Notes under the pieces: generated by a model
The model's input: the letters and a program-made list of their open reading frames with translations, nothing else
What the model was told of the DNA's origin: nothing
Database searches by the model: none
Made by a program: the position numbers and the translations under genes
Assembly: GCA_035558535.1 (NCBI GenBank)
Contig: DATMCI010000056.1
Span: 1 to 31,743 of the forward strand
Source: Kofleriaceae bacterium
GTDB taxonomy: Bacteria; Myxococcota_A; Polyangia; Haliangiales; Haliangiaceae
DNA: 31,743 nucleotides
Direction: 5' to 3'
In this document: one piece after another, positions 4,340 to 15,696 of the stretch
How positions within the stretch are numbered: the first letter of the stretch is position 1
Layout of the letters: each line of letters starts with the position of its first letter

Positions 4340-4468
4340 GCCGCGCATGATGACAGCCCGCCGCGCGCGAAAACCGGACAGAAAACCGGACAGCCGCGCC
4401 TCCTCGAGCGCGCCAGCATCGTGCAGCAAACGGCGGCACCCCTGGCAATATAGATGTCGGAAGGAGCG

Positions 4469-7400
4469 ATGGACCGCCTCGACCTCGCGCAGGAGCCACG
4501 CAGCGTTGTCCCGGGCCCGTCCGCCCGGTTCGGCAAGAGCCTCGCCGTGGTGATCGGGGTCGACGTCTACGGCGAGGGCATCGCGCCGCTCCGCTCGGCA
4601 GTCGCCGACGCGAAGGCGATCGCGGCGGCGCTGGAGCGCGATCACGGCTTCGAGACGTGGCGCCTGCTCGACGGCGACGCGGAGCTCCCGCACCTGCTCG
4701 CGCTCTTGCGCGAGCGGCTGCCCGCCGCGCTCGAGCAGGGCGATCGGCTCGTGCTCTACTTCGCCGGCCACGGCATCGCGCTCGATGGGGACGCCGGCCC
4801 GGCCGGCTACCTGCTGCCGGCGGGCGCCCAGCGCGCCGAGCGGGATGGCTTCTTGCCGATGCACGTCGTGCACGGCGAGCTGGCGCGGCTCCCGGTGCGC
4901 CACGCGCTGATCATCCTCGACTGCTGCTTCGCGGGCACGTTCCGGTGGTCGAGCCTGCGCGACGTCGTGCCCGAGTCGTCGACGATCTACCGCGAGCGCT
5001 ACGACCGCTACCTCGAGAGCGCGGCGTGGCAGGTGCTGACGTCGGCGAGCAGCGACCAGCTCGCGCTCGACATGCTCGCGAACGACCGCGGCGAGGGCGA
5101 GGGCGTGCACTCGCCGTTCGCGCTCGCGCTGCTCGACGGCCTCGCGGGCGCCGCCGACTACACGCGGGACAACGTGATCACCGCCGACGAGCTGGCGATG
5201 TACGCGCGCGAGCGCGTCGCGTCGGTCGCCGAGTCGGTGGGCCGCCGCCAGGTCCCGCAGCTGTTCCCGCTCGATCGCCACGACGCGGGCCAGTTCGTGT
5301 TCCAGGTGCCGGGCCGCGCGGTCGCCCTCGCCGCCGCGCCGCCGCTCGACGAGGCCCAAAACCCCTACCGCGGCCTGCGATCGTTCCTCGAGGAAGACCG
5401 CGGCCTGTTCTTCGGCCGCGACGCGGTCGTCGAGCGGCTCGCCCTGGCGGCCGCCGCGCGACCGCTCACCGTGGTCGCCGGCCCGTCGGGCTCGGGCAAG
5501 TCGAGCCTCGTCCACGCCGGGCTCGTGCCGGCGCTGCGCGCGCGAGGCTTCACCGTGCTGCCATCGCAGCGCCCGGCGCGCGCGCCGCTCGACGCCCTCG
5601 ACGCGTGGACGCGCGCGCTCGGCGCCGAGCCGATCCCCGGCGCGCCGGTGCGGTCGTGGGCGACCGCGGTCGCGGCGCGGGCCGCCGCCCACCCGGACCG
5701 CCCGTGGCTCGTCATCGTCGATCAGCTCGAGGAGCTGCTCACCCACCGGACCGCCGAGGCCGATCGGCTCGCGTTCCTCGGCGCGCTGGCGGACGCGCTC
5801 CGGGCCGCGCCGCAGCTCCACGTGATCGTGACGGTCCGCTCCGACGCCGAGCCGCAGCTCCACGACACCGCGCTCGCGCCGTGGTGGGCGGCCGGGCGGT
5901 TCGCCGTCCCCGCGATGACCCGCGACGAGCTCCGCCAGATCATCGAGCGGCCGGCGACCGCGGCCGTGCTGCACTTCGAGCCGTCGCGGCTGGTCGATCG
6001 GCTGATCGACGACGTCGCGCTGGTCCCAGCGCCGCTGCCGCTCCTGTCGTTCGCGCTGTCCGAGCTGTACCGCCGCTCGTGGGCGCGCTGGCAGGCCGGC
6101 GACCGCGACCGCGGGCTGCGCGAGGCCGACTACGACGAGATGGGCAGCGTGGCGCGGGCGCTGACCCAGCGCGCGACGGCTGTGCACGACGCGCTGGTGG
6201 CCGAGGACGCGCAGTACGCGACCACGATCCGCAACGTGTTCACCCGAATGGTCGCGCTCGTCGGCGGCGAGCTCGCGCGGCGGCGGGTGCCGCGCCACGA
6301 GCTTGCGTACGAAGATCCGGCCGAGGACCGACGCGTCGACGACGTCCTGCTGCGGTTCCACGACGCGCGCCTGATCTCGCTCGGGACCGAGCCGGCCCCC
6401 GACGGCGGCGCGAGCGCGTACGCCGAGCCGACGCACGACGAGCTGGTGCGCGGCTGGGCCCAGGTCCGCCGCTGGCTCGACGAGCTCGACGCGCCGGCCG
6501 GGACGCGGGCGCTGCTCGGCGCGCTGGCAGACGCGGTGCGGCCGTGGCGGACCCAGGGCCGCGCCGACTCGTACCTGTGGAGCGACGCGCGCGTCGAGCT
6601 CCTGAGCGCGCTCGGGCGGAGCCGCCGGCTCGCGCTCAACGCCGACGAGGCGCGCTTCGTCGCGCGCGCAGCGCGGCGGCGGCGCTCCCAGCGCAGGCGC
6701 CTGGTCGGGGGACTCTTGGCCGTGATCGTCGTCCTGGCCGTGGCCGCCGGCGTCGCCCTCTCGCAGCGCGATCAGGCGCAGCAGAACGCCGCGCGCGCAG
6801 AGGAGAACGCCGCCCGCGAGAAGCTCGCGCAGCAGCGCGCGTCGTCCGAGGCCCAGCGGGCCACGAGCCTGCTCGCGCGCATGTATCAGGAGGCCGGCCA
6901 CCAGTTCCTGCTCGATGGGCACCGCTTCAAGGCGCTGCCGTTCCTGGTGGCGGCGCGGCGCGAGGGCGAGGCGGGCACGCCGCTGCGAATGCTGTTCTGG
7001 ACGGCGACGCGCGCGCTGCCCAGAACGCCGCCGCTCGATCACCAGCGCGCCGTGACGAGCGCCGCGTTCAGCCCCGACGGCGCCCGCGTCGTGACCGGGG
7101 GCTTCGACCATACCGCGCGCGTCTGGGACGCCGCGACCGGTAGGCCGCTCCTGCCGCCCCTCCAGCACGGGGGCATCTTGAAGCGCGTCACGTGGAGCTC
7201 CGACGGCAAGCGGATCGTCACCGCCTCGCTCGACCACCGCGTGCGGATCTGGGACGCCGCGGCCGGCACGCTCCTCGTCACGATCCAGGACCGGAGCGCG
7301 CCGAGCGTCGCCGTGCTCAGCCCCGACGGCGCCCGCCTGCTCACCGCGAACAACAACGACACCGCGCAGCTCTGGGACGCCGCGACCGGCAAGCCGCTCG

Positions 7401-9115
7401 GCCCGCGCTTCCAGCACGCCGGCGCGGTGACCGACGCCGCGTGGAGCCCCGACGGCGCCCGCGTCGTCACCGCCAGCCGAGACTACACCGCGCAGGTCTG
7501 GGACGCCGCGACCGGCAAGCCGCTCGCGCCGCCGCTCCGGCACGCCAGCGTGGTGAACAGCGCCGCGTGGAGCCCCGACGGCGCCCGCGTCATCACCGCC
7601 AGCACCGACAAGACCGCGCGCGTCTGGGACGCCGCGACCGGCGAGTCGATCGGCCCGCCGCTCTTGCACCGCGAGAACGTCCGCGCCGCCTCGTTCAGCC
7701 CCGACGGTGCGCTCGTCGTCACCGCCAGCGACGACAAGACCGCGTGCGTCTGGGACACCGGCGCGGGCCGCTTCCAGCCCCTCGAGCACCAGCGCGCCGT
7801 GACAGGTGCGGCGTGGAGCCCCGACGGAACTCGCGTCGTCACCGCCAGCACCGATGGCACCGCGCGGATCTGGGACGCCGCGACCGGCCGGCCGCTCTCG
7901 CCGCCCCTCGAGCACACGGACGAGATCCTCCACGTCGCGTGGAGCCCCGACGGTGCCCGCATCGTCACCGCGAGCAGAGACAAGACCGCGCGCGTCTGGG
8001 ACGCCGCGAGCAGCGGGCCGCTCTCCCGGTCCCTCGCGCACACGCACGCCGTGAAGACCGCCGCGTGGAGCCCCGACGGCGCCCGCGTCGTCACCGGAGG
8101 CGACGATCATGCCGCGCACATCTTCGCCGCCGCGACTGGCAAGTCGCTCGGCCCGCCCCTCGAGCACCGGGGCTCGGTGAACTGGGTCGCGTGGAGCCCC
8201 GATGGCGCCCGCGTCGTCACCGCCAGCGCCGACGACACCGCGCGGATCTGGAGCGCCGCCACCGGCAAAGAGCTCGCCACCCTCCAGCACCAGAACAAGG
8301 TGTGGCGCGCCGCGTGGAGCCCCGACGGCACCCGCGTCGTCACCGCCAGCTTCGACAAGACCGCGCGGATCTGGAGCGCCGCCACCGGCAAAGAGCTCGT
8401 CACCCTCCAGCACCGGGGCGAGGTGCGAAGCGCCGCGTGGAGCCCCGACGGCACCCGCGTCGTCACCGCCAGCGCCGACAACACCGCGCGCGTCTGGGAC
8501 GCCGCCACCGGCCGCGCCCTGCCCCCGCCGCTCGAGCACCGCGGCCCCGTGTGGAGCGTCGCGTGGAGCCCCGACGGCACCCGCGTCGTCACCGCCAGCG
8601 CCGACAACACCGCGCGCGTCTGGGACGCCGCCACCGGCGCCCAGCGCGCCCGCCCCCTCGAGCACCAGGGCGCCGTGCACGATGCGTCGTTCAGCCCCGA
8701 CGGCTCGCTCGTCGTCACCGCCAGCGCCGACAAGACCGCGCGCGTCTGGGACGCCGCCACCGGCATGCCGGCGTCTCCGGCCTTCGAGCACCGGGACAAC
8801 GTGAGCAGCGCCGCGTTCAGCCCCGACGGCGCGAGCATCGTCACCGCGAACGACGACGGGACCGCGTCCGTGTGGAGCCTCGCCACTCACAAGCTGCTCG
8901 GCGCGCCGTTCCAGCACCGAGAGCTCGTGTGGACCGCAGCGTTCAGCCCCGACGGTACGCGCGTCGTCACCGCCAGCGACGACCAGACCGCGCAGATCTG
9001 GGAGCTCCCGATCGCCAGCGGCTCCCTCGCGGAGTGGGACGAGCTCGCGGAGCGGAGCCCGTACCTGCTCAGTAGCGGCGTGCTCGTGCCGCGCCTTTTG
9101 CGCCCCGCGCCGTGA
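4469..9115 (+). CDS. STAND NTPase: N-terminal caspase-like peptidase C14 domain - NACHT/AAA P-loop NTPase - single hydrophobic helix + coiled coil - ~15 WD40 repeats
   Basis: SD aaggag lies 5 nt before ATG at 4469. Caspase His/Cys dyad context: YFAGHG ... IILDCCFAG. Walker A VVAGPSGSGKSSLV, Walker B LVIVDQLEE. Hydrophobic segment LVGGLLAVIVVLAVAAGVAL. C-terminal tandem WD40 units are built around the recurring WSPDG/VWDAATG motifs. Confidence 0.85.
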   Translation: MDRLDLAQEPRSVVPGPSARFGKSLAVVIGVDVYGEGIAPLRSAVADAKAIAAALERDHGFETWRLLDGDAELPHLLALLRERLPAALEQGDRLVLYFAGHGIALDGDAGPAGYLLPAGAQRAERDGFLPMHVVHGELARLPVRHALIILDCCFAGTFRWSSLRDVVPESSTIYRERYDRYLESAAWQVLTSASSDQLALDMLANDRGEGEGVHSPFALALLDGLAGAADYTRDNVITADELAMYARERVASVAESVGRRQVPQLFPLDRHDAGQFVFQVPGRAVALAAAPPLDEAQNPYRGLRSFLEEDRGLFFGRDAVVERLALAAAARPLTVVAGPSGSGKSSLVHAGLVPALRARGFTVLPSQRPARAPLDALDAWTRALGAEPIPGAPVRSWATAVAARAAAHPDRPWLVIVDQLEELLTHRTAEADRLAFLGALADALRAAPQLHVIVTVRSDAEPQLHDTALAPWWAAGRFAVPAMTRDELRQIIERPATAAVLHFEPSRLVDRLIDDVALVPAPLPLLSFALSELYRRSWARWQAGDRDRGLREADYDEMGSVARALTQRATAVHDALVAEDAQYATTIRNVFTRMVALVGGELARRRVPRHELAYEDPAEDRRVDDVLLRFHDARLISLGTEPAPDGGASAYAEPTHDELVRGWAQVRRWLDELDAPAGTRALLGALADAVRPWRTQGRADSYLWSDARVELLSALGRSRRLALNADEARFVARAARRRRSQRRRLVGGLLAVIVVLAVAAGVALSQRDQAQQNAARAEENAAREKLAQQRASSEAQRATSLLARMYQEAGHQFLLDGHRFKALPFLVAARREGEAGTPLRMLFWTATRALPRTPPLDHQRAVTSAAFSPDGARVVTGGFDHTARVWDAATGRPLLPPLQHGGILKRVTWSSDGKRIVTASLDHRVRIWDAAAGTLLVTIQDRSAPSVAVLSPDGARLLTANNNDTAQLWDAATGKPLGPRFQHAGAVTDAAWSPDGARVVTASRDYTAQVWDAATGKPLAPPLRHASVVNSAAWSPDGARVITASTDKTARVWDAATGESIGPPLLHRENVRAASFSPDGALVVTASDDKTACVWDTGAGRFQPLEHQRAVTGAAWSPDGTRVVTASTDGTARIWDAATGRPLSPPLEHTDEILHVAWSPDGARIVTASRDKTARVWDAASSGPLSRSLAHTHAVKTAAWSPDGARVVTGGDDHAAHIFAAATGKSLGPPLEHRGSVNWVAWSPDGARVVTASADDTARIWSAATGKELATLQHQNKVWRAAWSPDGTRVVTASFDKTARIWSAATGKELVTLQHRGEVRSAAWSPDGTRVVTASADNTARVWDAATGRALPPPLEHRGPVWSVAWSPDGTRVVTASADNTARVWDAATGAQRARPLEHQGAVHDASFSPDGSLVVTASADKTARVWDAATGMPASPAFEHRDNVSSAAFSPDGASIVTANDDGTASVWSLATHKLLGAPFQHRELVWTAAFSPDGTRVVTASDDQTAQIWELPIASGSLAEWDELAERSPYLLSSGVLVPRLLRPAP
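7040..9000 (+). repeat. Nucleotide-level tandem repeat array (period 126 bp = one WD40 unit) inside the STAND gene, including two exactly identical 78-bp copies at 8435-8512 and 8561-8638
   Basis: Strings such as gcgtggagccccgacggc(g/a)cccgcgtcgtcaccgccagc and gacaagaccgcgcgcgtctgggacgccgc recur at a 126-bp spacing many times. Confidence 0.85.
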
Positions 9116-9169: not shown

Positions 9170-10984
9170 ATGCACGCGCAGCTCCTCGCCGAGATCCTCG
9201 CGGAGCCGCGCTCGATCGCGCCGCGGCTGGTCTACGCCGACGCGCTGCTCGAGGCTGGCGACCCGCGCGGCGAGCTCATCCAGCTCCAGTGCGCGCTCGA
9301 GGAGCAGGGCGCCGACGATCCGGCGCGCGAGGAGCGCGAGGCGCGCGCGGCTGACCTGCTCGCGCAGCACGAGCCGGCGTGGACGCGCGAGCTGCGCGCG
9401 AGCTGCCAGCTCCACGATCACCCGTTCGAGCTCGGCTTCCGCCGCGGCTTCGTCGAGCGCGCGCGGGTGCCGGGCAGCCGCGTGCCGGAGGTGCTGCCGC
9501 TGCTCGCGGCGCAGACCCCGCTGCGCGAGCTGCAGCTCCGCATCAAGGGTTCCATCGAGGCGCTCGCCGAGGTCCCTGGCCTGATGGAGCTGGAGGGCCT
9601 GTCGCTGGACGGCTCGACGACCGCCGGCGACCGCGCGCGCGCGTTCGCGCGCTGGCCGCACCGCGGGCGGCTGCGCTCGCTCGAAGCCGACGACGGGACC
9701 GCCATCGCGCACGCGGTGGCCGAGACGCCGGCGCTGGCCGGGCTCGAGAGCCTCGCGCTGAGCTTCGTCGACGCCCGGGGGGTCGCGGCGCTCGCCGCGG
9801 CGGCGCACCTCGCGCCCCTGCGCAAGCTGCGGCTCGCCCACGCCGTGATCGACGGCGCGGAGCTCGCCGCGCTCGGGCGCGCCGAGGTGTGGCCCGCGCT
9901 CGAGGCGCTCGATCTCCGGCGCTCGCGCGTGGGCGGCAACGGCGCGCTCGCGCTCGCGCACCTGGCCGCCGCGCGCCTGCGCGAGCTGCGCTGCGATCAG
10001 GGACTCGCCGCCGACGACGTGCTCGCGCTCGCCGCCCGCGCCCCGGACCTCGAGGTCGCCGATCTCGAGGGCGTCCGGCTCCAGGACACCGGCGCGCGGG
10101 CGCTCCTCCACGGCGCGGCCGCGCGCGCGAAGCTGCGCCACCTCGATCTCTCCGACACCGGGCTCTCGGACCAGGGCCTCGCCGGCGTGGTGCGCGCGCT
10201 CGAGGACGCCAGCCTGCGCCGGCTCGCGTGCTGCAAGAACGATCTGTCCACCGCCGCCACCGCGGCGATCGCGGCGAGCCGCGCGCTCGACGGTCTGCAG
10301 CAGCTGTTCCTGGCGGGGTGCCCGCTCGGCGACGCCGGGGTGACGGCGCTCGCGAGGAGCGCGCACCTGCCGGCGCTCCGCGTGCTCGATCTCGCGCGGA
10401 CCGAGTGCGGCCGCGGCGGGCTCCAGGCGCTCGGCCAAAGCGAGCTCGGGGCGCGCCTGGTCTCGCTGGAGCTCGGCTACAATGAGCTCGTCGATCGCGA
10501 TCTCGGCGCGCTGCTCGCCGGGCGTCGCCTCGATCGGCTCGAGCGCCTCACCCTCGGCGGCCTGGACCTGGAGCTGCCCGGCGCCCGCGTGCTCGCCGGC
10601 TCGCCGCTCGCCGCGCGCCTCCGGGCCCTCACCCTCGGGCGGCTCCAGCCCGACGCGGCCGCCCTGCTCGCGGCGGCCGACCTGCCCGAGCTGCGGCAGC
10701 TCGTCATCGGCGACTTCGACGATCGCGCCGCCGCGATCCTCGCCCAGTCGCGCGGCACGCCGTGCCTCTCGCACGTGGTGATGTTCAGCTCCCAGCTCAC
10801 CGACCAGGGCGCGTTCGCGCTCGCGGAGGCCCCCGGGCTCACGCGGATCACGTGGCTCGAGCTCGACGCGCCGCACGTGACCGATGCCGGCAAGGACGCG
10901 CTGCGGCGACGCTTCGGCCACCGCGTCGGCGTGTTCTCCGGCGCCACGCTGCACGCGTTCTCGGCGCTGTCGCGCCGGTTCTGA
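9170..10984 (+). CDS. TIGR02996-type N-terminal 'repeat-companion' domain fused to ribonuclease-inhibitor-like leucine-rich repeats
   Basis: N-terminus LVYADALLEAGDPRGELIQLQ matches the TIGR02996 signature. Repeated L-rich ~28-aa units follow (LDLSDTGLSDQGLAGVVRAL, LAGCPLGDAGVTALA...). Starts 55 bp after the STAND stop on the same strand. Confidence 0.7.
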   Translation: MHAQLLAEILAEPRSIAPRLVYADALLEAGDPRGELIQLQCALEEQGADDPAREEREARAADLLAQHEPAWTRELRASCQLHDHPFELGFRRGFVERARVPGSRVPEVLPLLAAQTPLRELQLRIKGSIEALAEVPGLMELEGLSLDGSTTAGDRARAFARWPHRGRLRSLEADDGTAIAHAVAETPALAGLESLALSFVDARGVAALAAAAHLAPLRKLRLAHAVIDGAELAALGRAEVWPALEALDLRRSRVGGNGALALAHLAAARLRELRCDQGLAADDVLALAARAPDLEVADLEGVRLQDTGARALLHGAAARAKLRHLDLSDTGLSDQGLAGVVRALEDASLRRLACCKNDLSTAATAAIAASRALDGLQQLFLAGCPLGDAGVTALARSAHLPALRVLDLARTECGRGGLQALGQSELGARLVSLELGYNELVDRDLGALLAGRRLDRLERLTLGGLDLELPGARVLAGSPLAARLRALTLGRLQPDAAALLAAADLPELRQLVIGDFDDRAAAILAQSRGTPCLSHVVMFSSQLTDQGAFALAEAPGLTRITWLELDAPHVTDAGKDALRRRFGHRVGVFSGATLHAFSALSRRF

Positions 10985-12335: not shown

Positions 12336-12770
12336 TCAACCGCCTCGAGCTCCCGGCGCCGGGGCTTCGGCGCGATGCCCGGTCAAGGAAAGGAGGATGT
12401 GCCCTGCGAGTGCTCCGAGCTCCGTCTGAAGGAACCTGGAATCGATGGCACTACCGAAACGCACCCAAAGCGGATCCCAATAAACTTCCGTTCGTGTGCT
12501 GGTCACTTGCAGGTAATGCTTCAACGACGCGAGGCGCTGATGGACATCCGGAGCGGCGACTTCGTCGGGAGCCACGATGTCGAGATAACTCACGATCCGG
12601 TTCTCCCCCGGCGGCACCTCCAGCCACTGGCGAACGAGCTCCCCCGGGTTCGTGTCTGGAAGCAGCTCGTCCGGGACGCGCGTCCAGACGGACGACCCAT
12701 GGACGTACTGATAGACGTTGACGCCGCGTGCTCCGCGCGGCGACACGACACGCTGCGCGGTCAGTAGCAC
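12336..12770 (-). CDS. Hypothetical protein (144 aa), third gene of the low-GC HEPN operon; GTG start overlapping the upstream stop (TAGTG)
   Basis: Protein-like composition. 1-nt overlap with the upstream gene. No family recognised. Confidence 0.5.
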   Translation of the reverse strand: MLLTAQRVVSPRGARGVNVYQYVHGSSVWTRVPDELLPDTNPGELVRQWLEVPPGENRIVSYLDIVAPDEVAAPDVHQRLASLKHYLQVTSTRTEVYWDPLWVRFGSAIDSRFLQTELGALAGHILLSLTGHRAEAPAPGARGG

Positions 12771-13192
12771 TACGCCGCCTTCCGGGGCAGCTCACTGCTA
12801 CCGGTTCCTGGCGCCCCGCTTCGCGGATGCAACGCGATGTCGGTCCCCAGTGGAGGAACTTCCACATCGAGTATACGAGCGGCGGTGTCCACATCGAGCG
12901 TGACCTCGGCCAGGAGCGCCCGTTCGACGAAATCAGAGTAGAGGCGAGCAGACTCGGCGCGTGTATGGAAGATGACGATCACGGGACCGCCCGCCACTGC
13001 CTCCATCTCCTTCCGGATCGGCCGCAAGCTGCGAAACAGCTCGCGCTGCTCGGCGGCATCGGCGTTGAAGATCTCCAACGTTCGCTCGCGGCCATCGTAG
13101 TCGCCCAAGACGTTCTGCGCCCACCGAACCGGACGGCCGCTGAGCGCATCGCTGATGCGCCGTGCGAGCTCTTCGCGCACTGGCGTCGTCAT
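12770..13192 (-). CDS. Hypothetical protein (140 aa), middle gene of the low-GC HEPN operon; ATG overlaps the HEPN stop (ATGA)
   Basis: Translational coupling on both sides. No GS-x-D-x-D nucleotidyltransferase motif, so it is not a canonical MNT partner. No family recognised. Confidence 0.5.
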   Translation of the reverse strand: MTTPVREELARRISDALSGRPVRWAQNVLGDYDGRERTLEIFNADAAEQRELFRSLRPIRKEMEAVAGGPVIVIFHTRAESARLYSDFVERALLAEVTLDVDTAARILDVEVPPLGTDIALHPRSGAPGTGSSELPRKAA

Positions 13193-13578
13193 GACGCCTT
13201 CCTTTCGAGCACCTCGGCGACCAACCGCTGTGCCATCACTTGGGCGTCGGAAGCCTCGTCGTACTCGATCATGTCTTCGTAGTAGTCTGCCTTGACGCGA
13301 AGATCGCGAAGTCTCGAGAGATCATCACACAAATCGTCATCCAAGATTCCCCACTCCTGGGCACGGCTGGGAAGGGTGTCATGACGATAATACTGCGCCC
13401 CGCGAGAATCGAACGAGAGGCCCTCTTGCTGAGCGCGGTCTGCGACGGCTTGGTAGGCTGCGTAATACGCGCGCGCCGTCGCCGCGTTGGACAACGGTTC
13501 CACCCGGCCATCGTCTGATCGATCGAGCAAGCGCTCGGCCGCCTCGAGGTTCTCCCTTGCCTTCTCATCGAGCCGCAT
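13189..13578 (-). CDS. HEPN-like domain protein (first gene of a translationally coupled three-gene operon)
   Basis: MRLDEKARENLEAAERLL ... ATARAYYAAYQAVADRAQQEGL ... SRGAQYYRHD ... LRDLRVKADYYEDMIEYDEASDAQVMAQRL. This is an all-alpha HEPN-like pattern with an R-x6-H (RGAQYYRH) candidate catalytic motif. ATG at 13578 is preferred over 13659, which would overlap the divergent gene. Confidence 0.5.
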   Translation of the reverse strand: MRLDEKARENLEAAERLLDRSDDGRVEPLSNAATARAYYAAYQAVADRAQQEGLSFDSRGAQYYRHDTLPSRAQEWGILDDDLCDDLSRLRDLRVKADYYEDMIEYDEASDAQVMAQRLVAEVLERKAS

Positions 13579-13647
13579 GGTCCTGGGGGTAGATTGGAGC
13601 GCTGGGACCACGATGTCCACAGGCGAACGCGAGCCCGGCCGCCGTGG

Positions 13648-13806
13648 CGGCCGGAACAATCCGCCGCCGGCCCGCGTTCAGCGCTGATGTTGCGCACCGC
13701 GACGCTCGGCCTCGCCCTCTACCTCGCGTTCACCGCGTCGGCTCGCAGCACGCTCTCGGTGATCGTCGTCTGCCCCATCGCGGCGCCGCCCGCTCGGAGC
13801 GTGCTG
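13648..13806 (+). repeat. R-family repeat copy R1 (5' region and signal-peptide coding part of the Pro-rich gene), ~85% identical over ~100 bp to 17443-17546
   Basis: gctcggcctcgccctctacctcgcgttcaccgcgtcg is identical in both copies and downstream identity is also high. The upstream part shares atccgccgc with R2/R3. Confidence 0.7.
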
Positions 13807-14724: not shown

Positions 14725-15696
14725 ATGCAGCGCTACGAGCTGGCGGACGGGACCTCGAACAAGTTCTGGGAGATCGGGCTCGACGGTAAGACCGTCACGG
14801 TGCGGTTCGGCCGGATCGGCACGACCGGCCAGACGCAGGTCAAGACGCACGCCTCGCCCGAGGCCGCACGCAAGGAGCGCGACAAGCTCGTGGCCGAGAA
14901 GACGAAGAAAGGCTACCGCCTCGCGGCCGCGCGTGGCCCCGCGGCCGCGAAGGCCGGCGCGAAGGCCAGCGCGAAGACCAAGGCCAAGGCCAAGCTGGTG
15001 CCGCTGCTCGCCGACGGCGCGCCGAAAGACGTCGTCGCGCTGCGCAAGCTCGCCGCGCAGGCGCGCGAAGGAGACGAGGCGATGACGCGCACGTACATCA
15101 TCACGGTGACGAAGGGCAAGCCCGGCGTCATGCGCGCTGGCGGCCCACCGATCGGCGTCACCGACAAGACGCGCCCCAAGTACGACGGCGCGTTCATGCA
15201 CCACCTCATCACGCTCGATCTCGACGCGATGCCCGAGCTGCGCAAGCAGCACAAGCCGCTCGCGCGCGCCCGCGCGCTCGCGCTGTTCATCTCCAACGCG
15301 ATGGACAACGAGGCATTCGACGACGACACCCAGGAGACCGCCGTCCTCGCGCTCGCCCCCAAGGACATCGCCCGCGGCGAGTGGACCGGCCCCGCCGTCG
15401 GCGATCCGAAGCCGCACGCACTCGCGGCGTGGCCCGTCGACGTCCCCGCGCGCGTGTTCACGTTCGATCGCTACGCCACCGACGACGATGCCGACGACAC
15501 CGACGATCCCATGGCCGAGCTCCACGACGAGCTCATGTCCGCGTGCCGCGCGGGCGGCCAGGTCATCCACTGGTCCGGCGACGATCCCGACGACCGCTGG
15601 GTGTTCCAGTTCAACGAGGATCTCGTCGAGGTCAACCTCGGCGACGCCGGCACGATGTACGTGTTCACCGATCGCGCTTACTGGGACGGACACTGA
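14725..15696 (+). CDS. WGR domain + DUF1963 (YwqG-like) domain protein
   Basis: N-terminus MQRYELADGTSNKFWEIGLDGKTVTVRFGRIGTTGQTQVK...KGY matches WGR. The C-terminal region (GGPPIG, HHLITLDL, DAGTMYVFTD) matches the DUF1963 pattern. Confidence 0.65.
   Translation: MQRYELADGTSNKFWEIGLDGKTVTVRFGRIGTTGQTQVKTHASPEAARKERDKLVAEKTKKGYRLAAARGPAAAKAGAKASAKTKAKAKLVPLLADGAPKDVVALRKLAAQAREGDEAMTRTYIITVTKGKPGVMRAGGPPIGVTDKTRPKYDGAFMHHLITLDLDAMPELRKQHKPLARARALALFISNAMDNEAFDDDTQETAVLALAPKDIARGEWTGPAVGDPKPHALAAWPVDVPARVFTFDRYATDDDADDTDDPMAELHDELMSACRAGGQVIHWSGDDPDDRWVFQFNEDLVEVNLGDAGTMYVFTDRAYWDGH

Follow-up and report, generated by a model that had tools for sequence, protein, structure and literature searches.

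The contig DATMCI010000056.1 of a Kofleriaceae bacterium (assembly GCA_035558535.1), 31,743 nucleotides long and referred to here as the window, carries three small genes on its minus strand between positions 12336 and 13578. We call them, in the order in which they would be transcribed, g1 (13189..13578, 129 residues, ATG start), g2 (12770..13192, 140 residues, ATG start) and g3 (12336..12770, 144 residues, GTG start). A sequence-only reading of the window had located these genes, described their stop-to-start overlaps and taken them for a candidate toxin-antitoxin (TA) or defence module led by a HEPN-like protein. An open reading frame (ORF) check returned the same coordinates, and both overlaps are present, as ATGA at the g1/g2 junction and as TAGTG at the g2/g3 junction. 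The TA interpretation was also supported: the trio turned out to be recurrent among soil myxobacteria, no described family covers all three of its members, and profile searches that might have placed them together in a known TA or defence family returned only a weak HEPN match. Our analysis indicates that the trio is probably a TA-type module in which g2 serves as a two-part adaptor, its N-terminal domain (g2-N) pairing with the HEPN protein and its C-terminal extension with the product of the third gene. Judged from the sequences, the module is similar to the toxin-antitoxin-chaperone (TAC) systems in its genetic logic and is not a member of the TAC family.

The evidence that carries this reading is the agreement between the C-terminal tail of g2 and the gene that follows it, as tallied over 58 non-redundant loci. 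Tails of the type P[RH]x..A (LPRKAA, PPRTAA, PHRRAA and others) were accompanied by g3 as the third gene in 23 loci and by g3 fragments in 3 more, and none of the 58 loci combined such a tail with a PIN gene or with the absence of a third gene. Other tails ending in -AA (DIEP[LIF]RLR[GE]AA, e.g. DIEPLRLRGAA, or DPDDIARITMDAA) preceded a PIN gene in 8 loci. A g2 devoid of both the extension and the -AA end was found in 12 loci, all without a third gene, and short versions of g2, with 17-30 residues after the FHT motif, occurred only where there was no third gene. Because the class of the tail predicts the third gene, and because the extension is present only with a third gene, the extension may be an adaptor for whatever this gene encodes. 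The existence of two-gene relatives with a short g2 also means that the pair formed by the HEPN protein and g2-N looks self-sufficient.

The two parts of g2 can be delimited. The N-terminal domain (residues 1-90; 12923..13192, minus strand) is a conserved alpha/beta region containing the motifs RPVRW, GDYDGRER, TLEVFNAD, GGPVIVIFHT and ESARLY. Its conserved positions are R20, P21, R23 and W24, the stretch G30 D31 Y32 D33 G34 R35 x R37 T38 L39 E40 x F42 and, further on, G68, G69, P70, F75, H76, T77, E80, R83 and L84. AlphaFold2 predicts at high confidence that it is folded in the order helix-strand-strand-helix-strand-helix. This domain adjoins the HEPN gene in 39 of the 58 loci and is the putative HEPN-neutralising part of the protein. 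The C-terminal extension (residues 91-140; 12770..12922, minus strand) consists of a helix and of a tail predicted with low confidence that ends GTGSSELPRKAA-COOH. The predicted local distance difference test (pLDDT) score of residues 101-140 is 49-61, and according to this model the tail is probably disordered. Its end is well conserved in the family (G-T-G-S-x-x-L-P-R-x-A-A-COOH), P136 being retained in 94%, R137 in 87%, A139 in 86% and A140 in 83% of the sequences. By analogy with TAC antitoxins, we propose that the extension is a g3-binding element with a ClpX-type Ala-Ala C-terminal degron.

None of the 158 homologues of g2 has a Pfam domain. g2 itself matched no family in Pfam, NCBIfam or PADLOC and nothing below E=1 in a PDB profile search, and a Pfam scan of 119 family members at E<=10 gave scattered noise only. 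An AAA_15 match (P0298) in the Pfam scans of the g2 and g3 families was discounted, its source being a chimeric contig of 530 nt. We also considered that relatives of about 230 residues might be fusions with a HEPN domain and rejected this, their extra length corresponding to an inserted middle region.

The sister modules with the order HEPN-g2-PIN (L019, L043, L047, L052-L054, L056 and L058; e.g. L053 2004-2453) encode third proteins that match PF01850 above the gathering score (E 1e-12 to 4e-16) and in which the acidic residues appear, from the alignment, to be retained. Like VapBC systems, they place the PIN gene directly after a gene whose product has a PIN-specific tail, according to the logic of the VapB tail, and they could represent an arrangement with one antitoxin and two nucleases. 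The module of the window differs from VapBC in that its third protein has no PIN match and is predicted to be beta-rich, and in that g2-N, which belongs to none of the known types of DNA-binding antitoxin domain, is itself paired with an upstream toxin-like gene. The third slot may accept more partner types, as other third genes without a recognised identity lie behind variants of g2 ending ...DREAA and ...YEEAA (L063 1149-1568 and L022 550-924). In L047, an ORF similar to nucleotidyltransferases (2096-2512; LVGSHARG...GSDVDVVLVV) is located directly upstream of the HEPN-g2-PIN genes; phmmer found no relative for it in the PDB.

g3 belongs to a large uncharacterised family. Its profile, run against 1.84 billion representatives, retrieved 680 clusters (at 50% identity) at E<=1e-3, a figure that is a lower bound, and 505 clusters at E<=1e-10. 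The proteins are either about 130-150 or about 240-265 residues long, the long ones (L021 4339-5061, L046 3390-4295, P0403-P0462) having about 110 additional C-terminal residues without a Pfam match. In 135 diverse members the core reads M-Y-L-T-A-x-R-V ... G-I-N ... H-G ... P-G ... P-G-G-N-x-V-x-S-Y-L-D-[IV]-V-x-P-D ... R-F-G ... E, and the most conserved positions are N57 (100%), N18 (98%), D64 (97%) and H24 (96%), besides S61, D69, E117, R7 and R104, which are also conserved family-wide. The GTG start of g3 is supported by the fact that the N-terminus common to the family, M-[YL]-L-T-A-Q-R-V, begins at that very codon. AlphaFold predicts six strands and three helices (pLDDT 92, predicted template modelling score 0.87). 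The predicted structure had no match among solved structures, and the model therefore suggests a new fold in an unannotated family. A PDB profile search gave nothing below E=1, NCBIfam and PADLOC gave no match, and Pfam scans at E<=10 returned no meaningful family for 90 members (noise only) nor for 10 longer relatives. The sequence-only reading had recognised nothing in g2 or g3, and we likewise found no Pfam, NCBIfam, PADLOC or PDB family for either.

More distant homologues of g3 (E about 1e-30 to the profile), of which six or seven genomic contexts were sampled, stand behind genes for middle proteins that are not homologous to g2-N. In L070 (1586-2741), a 136-residue Tse2-like ADP-ribosyltransferase (PF18648, E 2.7e-10, above gathering) is followed by a 112-residue middle protein ending ...GSGTFPREAA and by a g3-like protein of 138 residues. 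Tse2-like proteins also come first in L068 (258-1665), before a 92-residue middle protein ending ...RQRVA, and in a JGI contig, before a 91-residue one, the g3-like protein having a C-terminal extension in both. In L071 the Tse2-like gene has decayed, and its truncated remainder runs in frame into the middle gene (4558-5001), whose product ends ...LKEVA and which precedes the gene of a 245-residue g3-like protein. The first gene of L069 would lie beyond the end of the contig; its upstream ORF ends ...PPRLEVA and its g3-like protein has 250 residues. L074 has no apparent first gene, a middle protein of 183 residues ending ...NRFREAS and a g3-like protein of 153 residues. Finally, proteins of 128, 151 and 149 residues, the last one g3-like, are encoded in L075-77; this trio is located inside a type I CRISPR-Cas locus and has cas8b-type effector genes on one side and cas4/cas1-cas2 on the other (L075 4172-5450, also L076 and L077).

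A short C-terminal ending of the type [RH]-x(1-3)-[AV]-A was present in 4 of the 6 sampled middle proteins, L074 ending in ...REAS and L075 having no such end. That of L070 has nearly the whole G[ST]G..[LF]PRxAA tail in common with g2. These comparisons show g3 to be portable across unrelated first and middle genes. The small middle protein of L070 and L068 is helical, and the combination of a Tse2-like ADP-ribosyltransferase, a helical protein and a g3-like protein looks like an uncharacterised tripartite module based on an ADP-ribosyltransferase.

By its homologues, g1 is a HEPN-T protein of the UPF0332/AF0298 type. Residues 5-123 of g1 align with positions 6-114 of the 117 of the Pfam model PF05168 (E 0.021, 15.5 bits, for a gathering score of 22). 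Among its 176 homologues, many have PF05168 and the JGI name 'UPF0332 family', and dozens of those with one or both of these labels are 50-67% identical to g1. A profile built from 119 members of the family matched the UPF0332 protein AF0298 (PDB 2hsb; residues 13-124, E 0.009), and two PDB entries named 'HEPN domain-containing protein', 9xbd (E 0.01) and 9xbc. AF0298 is the best relative with a solved structure, though a remote one (about 19 bits), and the full-length alignment to it suggests for g1 the fold of an up-and-down bundle of four helices. The first product had been called HEPN-like by the sequence-only reading, and the full-length PF05168 alignment, the UPF0332 homologues and the profile matches to 2hsb and 9xbd bear this out. 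The motif given with that call, R-x6-H in RGAQYYRHD, did not survive: the string is present in g1, but R59 is kept in just 29% of the homologues, and RGAQYYRH was therefore rejected as a catalytic Rx6H motif.

The position of the HEPN motif corresponds to R94-V-K-A-D98-Y99, where R (99%), D (99%) and Y (100%) are conserved; family conservation shows no His there, so that the canonical Rx4-6H motif, which normally opens the last helix, is lacking. Instead, H66 is invariant (100%) within Y63-x-R65-H66-D67, in which R65 and D67 are kept in 86% and 96% of the sequences. This matches the pattern described for the AF0298 group of HEPN-T proteins: they lack the His of the motif, and another conserved His, located on its N-terminal side, has been proposed to form an alternative active site (Anantharaman et al. 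2013, PMC3710099). Like AF0298 and UPF0332 (COG1895), g1 keeps the basic residue of the motif, has no His in it and has a conserved His N-terminal to it. Unlike the archaeal AF0298-type proteins, which adjoin genes for minimal nucleotidyltransferases (MNT), g1 adjoins g2. Taken together, these features make g1 a putative RNase toxin.

The closest functional analogues of the module are the TAC systems (HigBAC of Mycobacterium tuberculosis; CmdTAC, HigBAC and MqsRAC of Escherichia coli). As described in the literature on them (bioRxiv 10.1101/2024.02.24.581848; PMC5105189, PMC6377645, PMC11618068), these systems have the order toxin, antitoxin, chaperone, and a disordered C-terminal ChAD makes the antitoxin depend on the chaperone; once the ChAD is removed, an ordinary two-gene TA remains. 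According to the same literature, the chaperone is found with several families of TA pairs, one of them with an ADP-ribosyltransferase toxin, and phages are sensed by the chaperone in E. coli HigBAC. The ChAD ends in Ala-Ala in CmdA and in Val-Ala in HigA1 of M. tuberculosis, these ends being ClpX degrons shielded by the chaperone, and replacement of AA by DD abolishes toxicity (bioRxiv 10.1101/2024.02.24.581848). TACs were recently shown to sense phage proteins via the chaperone and to fire via degradation of the antitoxin by ClpXP. The module of the window resembles them in the order of a toxin-like, an antitoxin-like and a third component with overlapping frames. It also resembles them in the C-terminal extension of g2, which is predicted to be disordered and from which two-gene relatives are free. 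Furthermore, the g2 family ends in Ala-Ala and the distant middle proteins end in -EAA, -RVA or -EVA, an -AA/-VA end not being present in all TACs. Like the TAC chaperone, g3 combines with unrelated pairs (HEPN/g2, Tse2-like ADP-ribosyltransferase with a helical protein, and the 128-/151-residue pair). In contrast, g3 is not SecB-like, whereas a SecB-like chaperone is the defining feature of TACs.

On this analogy, g1 would be an HEPN RNase toxin with a site formed by H66, R94, D98 and Y99, and the N-terminal domain of g2 would pair with this toxin and neutralise it. The tail of g2 (...LPRxAA-COOH) would be a docking peptide for g3, proposed to be the tail-binding third component, which would mask the ClpX-type Ala-Ala degron and keep g2 stable. 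If g3 were titrated or lost, for instance under stress or through a phage protein, ClpXP would degrade g2 and the g1 toxin would be released. We infer the toxicity of g1, its neutralisation by g2, the binding of the tail by g3, the involvement of ClpXP and any role in phage defence from sequence and from the comparison with TACs. The model as a whole, with a HEPN toxin, a two-part antitoxin/adaptor and a degron-masking tail binder, appears to us evenly poised between right and wrong; for the specific TAC-like role of g3 taken separately, the prospects are even at best. A wider formulation would be that the g3 family consists of non-SecB 'addiction' partners that recognise a [LFP]PRxAA or xVA tail and that, along with this tail, can join unrelated TA pairs, such as HEPN/g2, those with Tse2-like ADP-ribosyltransferases and the one in the CRISPR-Cas locus. 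We put it forward tentatively, as somewhat more doubtful than the model itself; g3 could then be a phage or stress sensor.

Several findings weigh against the TAC-like model. The protein in the third slot of the sister modules, a PIN nuclease, is a toxin rather than a chaperone, and the many invariant polar residues of g3 (N18, H24, N57, D64 and others) could mark an enzyme. In L029 (3417-3900), g3 is a pseudogene with internal deletions beside a HEPN gene and a g2 that look intact, which is unexpected if g2 is strictly addicted to g3. The distant contexts of g3 that were sampled number just six or seven. With respect to g1, the PF05168 score of the window protein is below gathering, the catalytic His of the canonical HEPN motif is absent, and the family is strongly acidic (pI 4.5 for g1, median 4.66), which is unusual for a toxin targeting RNA.

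We considered the possibility that g3 is itself a second toxin, with a new fold, held by the tail of g2 in the manner of VapB while g2-N neutralises the HEPN protein; the Ala-Ala end would then make the shared antitoxin labile. The position of g3 directly downstream of the antitoxin gene, with overlapping codons, is indeed the canonical antitoxin-then-toxin order, the same slot holds a PIN protein (above Pfam gathering) in 8-10 sister loci, and the tail co-varies with the third gene as in VapB/VapC pairs. A catalytic site in g3 is also suggested by the invariance of N18, H24, N57, D64, S61, D69 and E117. Moreover, g3 has decayed in L029 beside intact g1 and g2, the Tse2-like gene has decayed in L071 beside an intact middle gene and g3, and L074 is possibly a two-gene module made of the 183-residue protein and g3. 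Yet, g3 resembles none of the known toxin folds or families, and in none of the sampled contexts did it accompany a classical DNA-binding antitoxin. In 5 of the 6 distant contexts that are informative, the first gene is toxin-like and g3 comes third, which is the pattern of a TAC chaperone and not that of a toxin, and the -AA/-VA end and disordered extension fit the elements of the TAC ChAD. We regard a second toxin, the main rival of our model, as rather unlikely, the TAC-like role remaining our preferred reading of g3.

Another possibility, compatible with either role of g3, bears on where g2 comes from and how it works: the module might derive from HEPN-MNT (HepT/MntA, type VII) systems. 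g2-N would be a highly diverged minimal nucleotidyltransferase that either modifies the HEPN protein, for instance on Y99, or purely binds it, and g3 would be a later addition. As in these systems, the gene for a small HEPN protein (about 130 residues, PF05168/UPF0332 lineage) is translationally coupled to that for a small alpha/beta partner, and the predicted fold of this partner weakly resembles a minimal nucleotidyltransferase. Y99 of g1, invariant and close to R94, is a candidate for the tyrosine that is nucleotidylylated in type VII systems. However, the G[SG]...DxD signature of nucleotidyltransferases (hG[GS]...[DE]x[DE], with a third carboxylate) is absent from g2, and none of 119 family members matched a nucleotidyltransferase model of Pfam; the GSx(n)DxD motif of MNT had already been noted as missing by the sequence-only reading, and rightly so. 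Further differences are the third gene found in most loci, the R..DY motif with a distal His that g1 has in place of Rx4-6H, and the gene order. MNT genes are almost always 5' of the HEPN gene (PMC3710099), whereas the HEPN gene was first in every locus of our set, so that the HEPN-first, three-component arrangement does set the module apart from HepT/MntA, as had been claimed. A derived HEPN-MNT system seems to us a rather improbable origin for g2.

The distribution of the trio is also informative. We found 14 loci among 185,579 species genomes and 42 further loci in metagenomes (by contig look-ups and pattern scans). The hosts of the 14 genome loci are Kofleriaceae, Polyangiaceae, Sandaracinaceae, Polyangia, Paraliomyxa and unclassified 'delta' metagenome-assembled genomes (MAGs). 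The co-occurrence of the three genes, one of the checks suggested with the original proposal, was confirmed: the order g1-g2-g3 is kept in about 26 independent, non-redundant loci, all on Myxococcota-type contigs. A hidden Markov model scan of the loci found the same order and strand throughout, with frames overlapping or abutting and the HEPN gene always first. None of the genes that flank the trio in the window recurs at another locus, and the flanks differ at each locus. They are mostly unrelated housekeeping genes elsewhere (IMPDH, malic enzyme, RecF, a HAD hydrolase and others), though other TA pairs adjoin the trio at times, namely Gp49/HI1420 and PIN/FitA in L003 and PIN in L001. A consistent location in defence islands, on which the same check bore, was thus not supported. 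None of the three proteins had a match at E<=1 in PADLOC-DB v2 (2023 library). Neither a tblastn search of plasmids with g3 and two of its distant homologues nor a scan of viral contigs with the g3 profile gave a match; there is therefore no evidence for carriage by plasmids or phages.

The base composition of the locus differs from that of its surroundings. The GC content of positions 12336-13578 is 63.5% (60.3% in g1, 65.5% in g2, 64.1% in g3), compared with 70.9% for the whole window. The value of about 55% given by the sequence-only reading was too low, but its point that the genes lie well below their surroundings stands: the segment is at the 0.2nd percentile among 1.24-kb stretches of the window, the true minimum being about 190 bp away and overlapping it. 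GC at third codon positions (GC3) is 0.70-0.76 in g1-g3 and 0.86-0.96 in 5 of 6 measured neighbouring genes, the adjacent glyoxalase gene having 0.81. Decayed copies exist as well: besides L029, this holds for L007 and L016 (L016 1130-1756), where a truncated g2 and a fragment of g3 remain and the HEPN gene is gone. A two-gene locus made of HEPN and a short paralogue of g2 was found in what is apparently the same MAG as the window (shared VNO30_ locus-tag prefix). Because the flanks are not shared, GC and GC3 are depressed and decayed copies exist, the trio's behaviour is typical of a mobile chromosomal TA-type selfish module.

These data also bear on the possibility that the trio is not a TA module at all, g1 being a catalytically dead HEPN scaffold and the three proteins a regulatory or housekeeping complex restricted to the Myxococcota lineage. 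In favour of this, the canonical His is absent from g1, whose sequence is also very acidic, the HEPN/g2 pair does not extend beyond one phylum-level group, and the trio is often flanked by housekeeping genes and has no PADLOC match. Against it, the loci are thinly scattered (14 among 185,579 species genomes) without a conserved flank, paralogues coexist in apparently one MAG, GC3 is depressed and some copies have become pseudogenes. The content of the slots is also variable, the third holding PIN, g3 or nothing and the first a HEPN or a Tse2-like toxin, and one relative is located inside a CRISPR-Cas locus, others beside HigBA-like and VapBC-like pairs. Furthermore, H66, R94, D98 and Y99 of g1 are invariant, as expected of an alternative HEPN active site. 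We consider a non-TA complex very unlikely.

Around the trio, g1 is preceded by an AGGA sequence 7 nt upstream of its ATG, and its reading frame remains open as far as the TTG at 13659. The intergenic region before g1 (13579..13686, without assigned strand) appears to be divergent, the next gene being on the plus strand, and is possibly a promoter or operator. It contains an 11-nt inverted repeat (13625-13635 / 13669-13679; 91% complementary, 33-nt spacer), which could be an operator or the terminator of a neighbouring gene. No sigma-70 consensus was found upstream of g1, and a promoter/terminator scan of the locus gave nothing above chance. The locus tags in the window include VNO30_07320 and VNO30_07315 (Kofleriaceae, Myxococcota MAG). 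Elsewhere in the window, a plus-strand gene at 4454-9115 encodes a 1553-residue protein in which an nSTAND1 NTPase domain (PF20703, E 1e-85) precedes about 14 WD40 repeats, and a leucine-rich repeat protein is encoded after it (9170-10984). A WGR-domain protein is encoded at 14725-15696 and an 847-residue ORF resembling major vault protein at 18832-21375 on the plus strand (MVP_shoulder PF11978, E 6.6e-25; Vault_3 PF17795, E 1.5e-11).

A full-text literature search covering UPF0332, COG1895, three-component HEPN systems, and Tse2 with tripartite TA systems returned no description of the module. As far as this literature goes, the co-variation of the g2 tail with the third gene and the portability of g3 are new observations. 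To our knowledge, every tripartite TAC system described so far has a SecB-like chaperone. If the TAC-like model is true, a structurally unrelated third component would make the control of an antitoxin by a tail and a tail-binder a general, convergently evolved design, and the module would represent a second, independent solution to the chaperone- or degron-controlled activation of TA systems. The tail and g3 would then form a short, transplantable peptide/binder pair. If the wider view of g3 as a portable partner is true, each HEPN-g2-PIN sister module would combine a single antitoxin with two nucleases. Should g3 be a toxin after all, its fold would be new among toxins, and the module would have a rare architecture with one antitoxin and two toxins. 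Under the TAC-like model, our findings would provide a first function for the large family of hypothetical proteins to which g3 belongs, and for a new partner of HEPN proteins.

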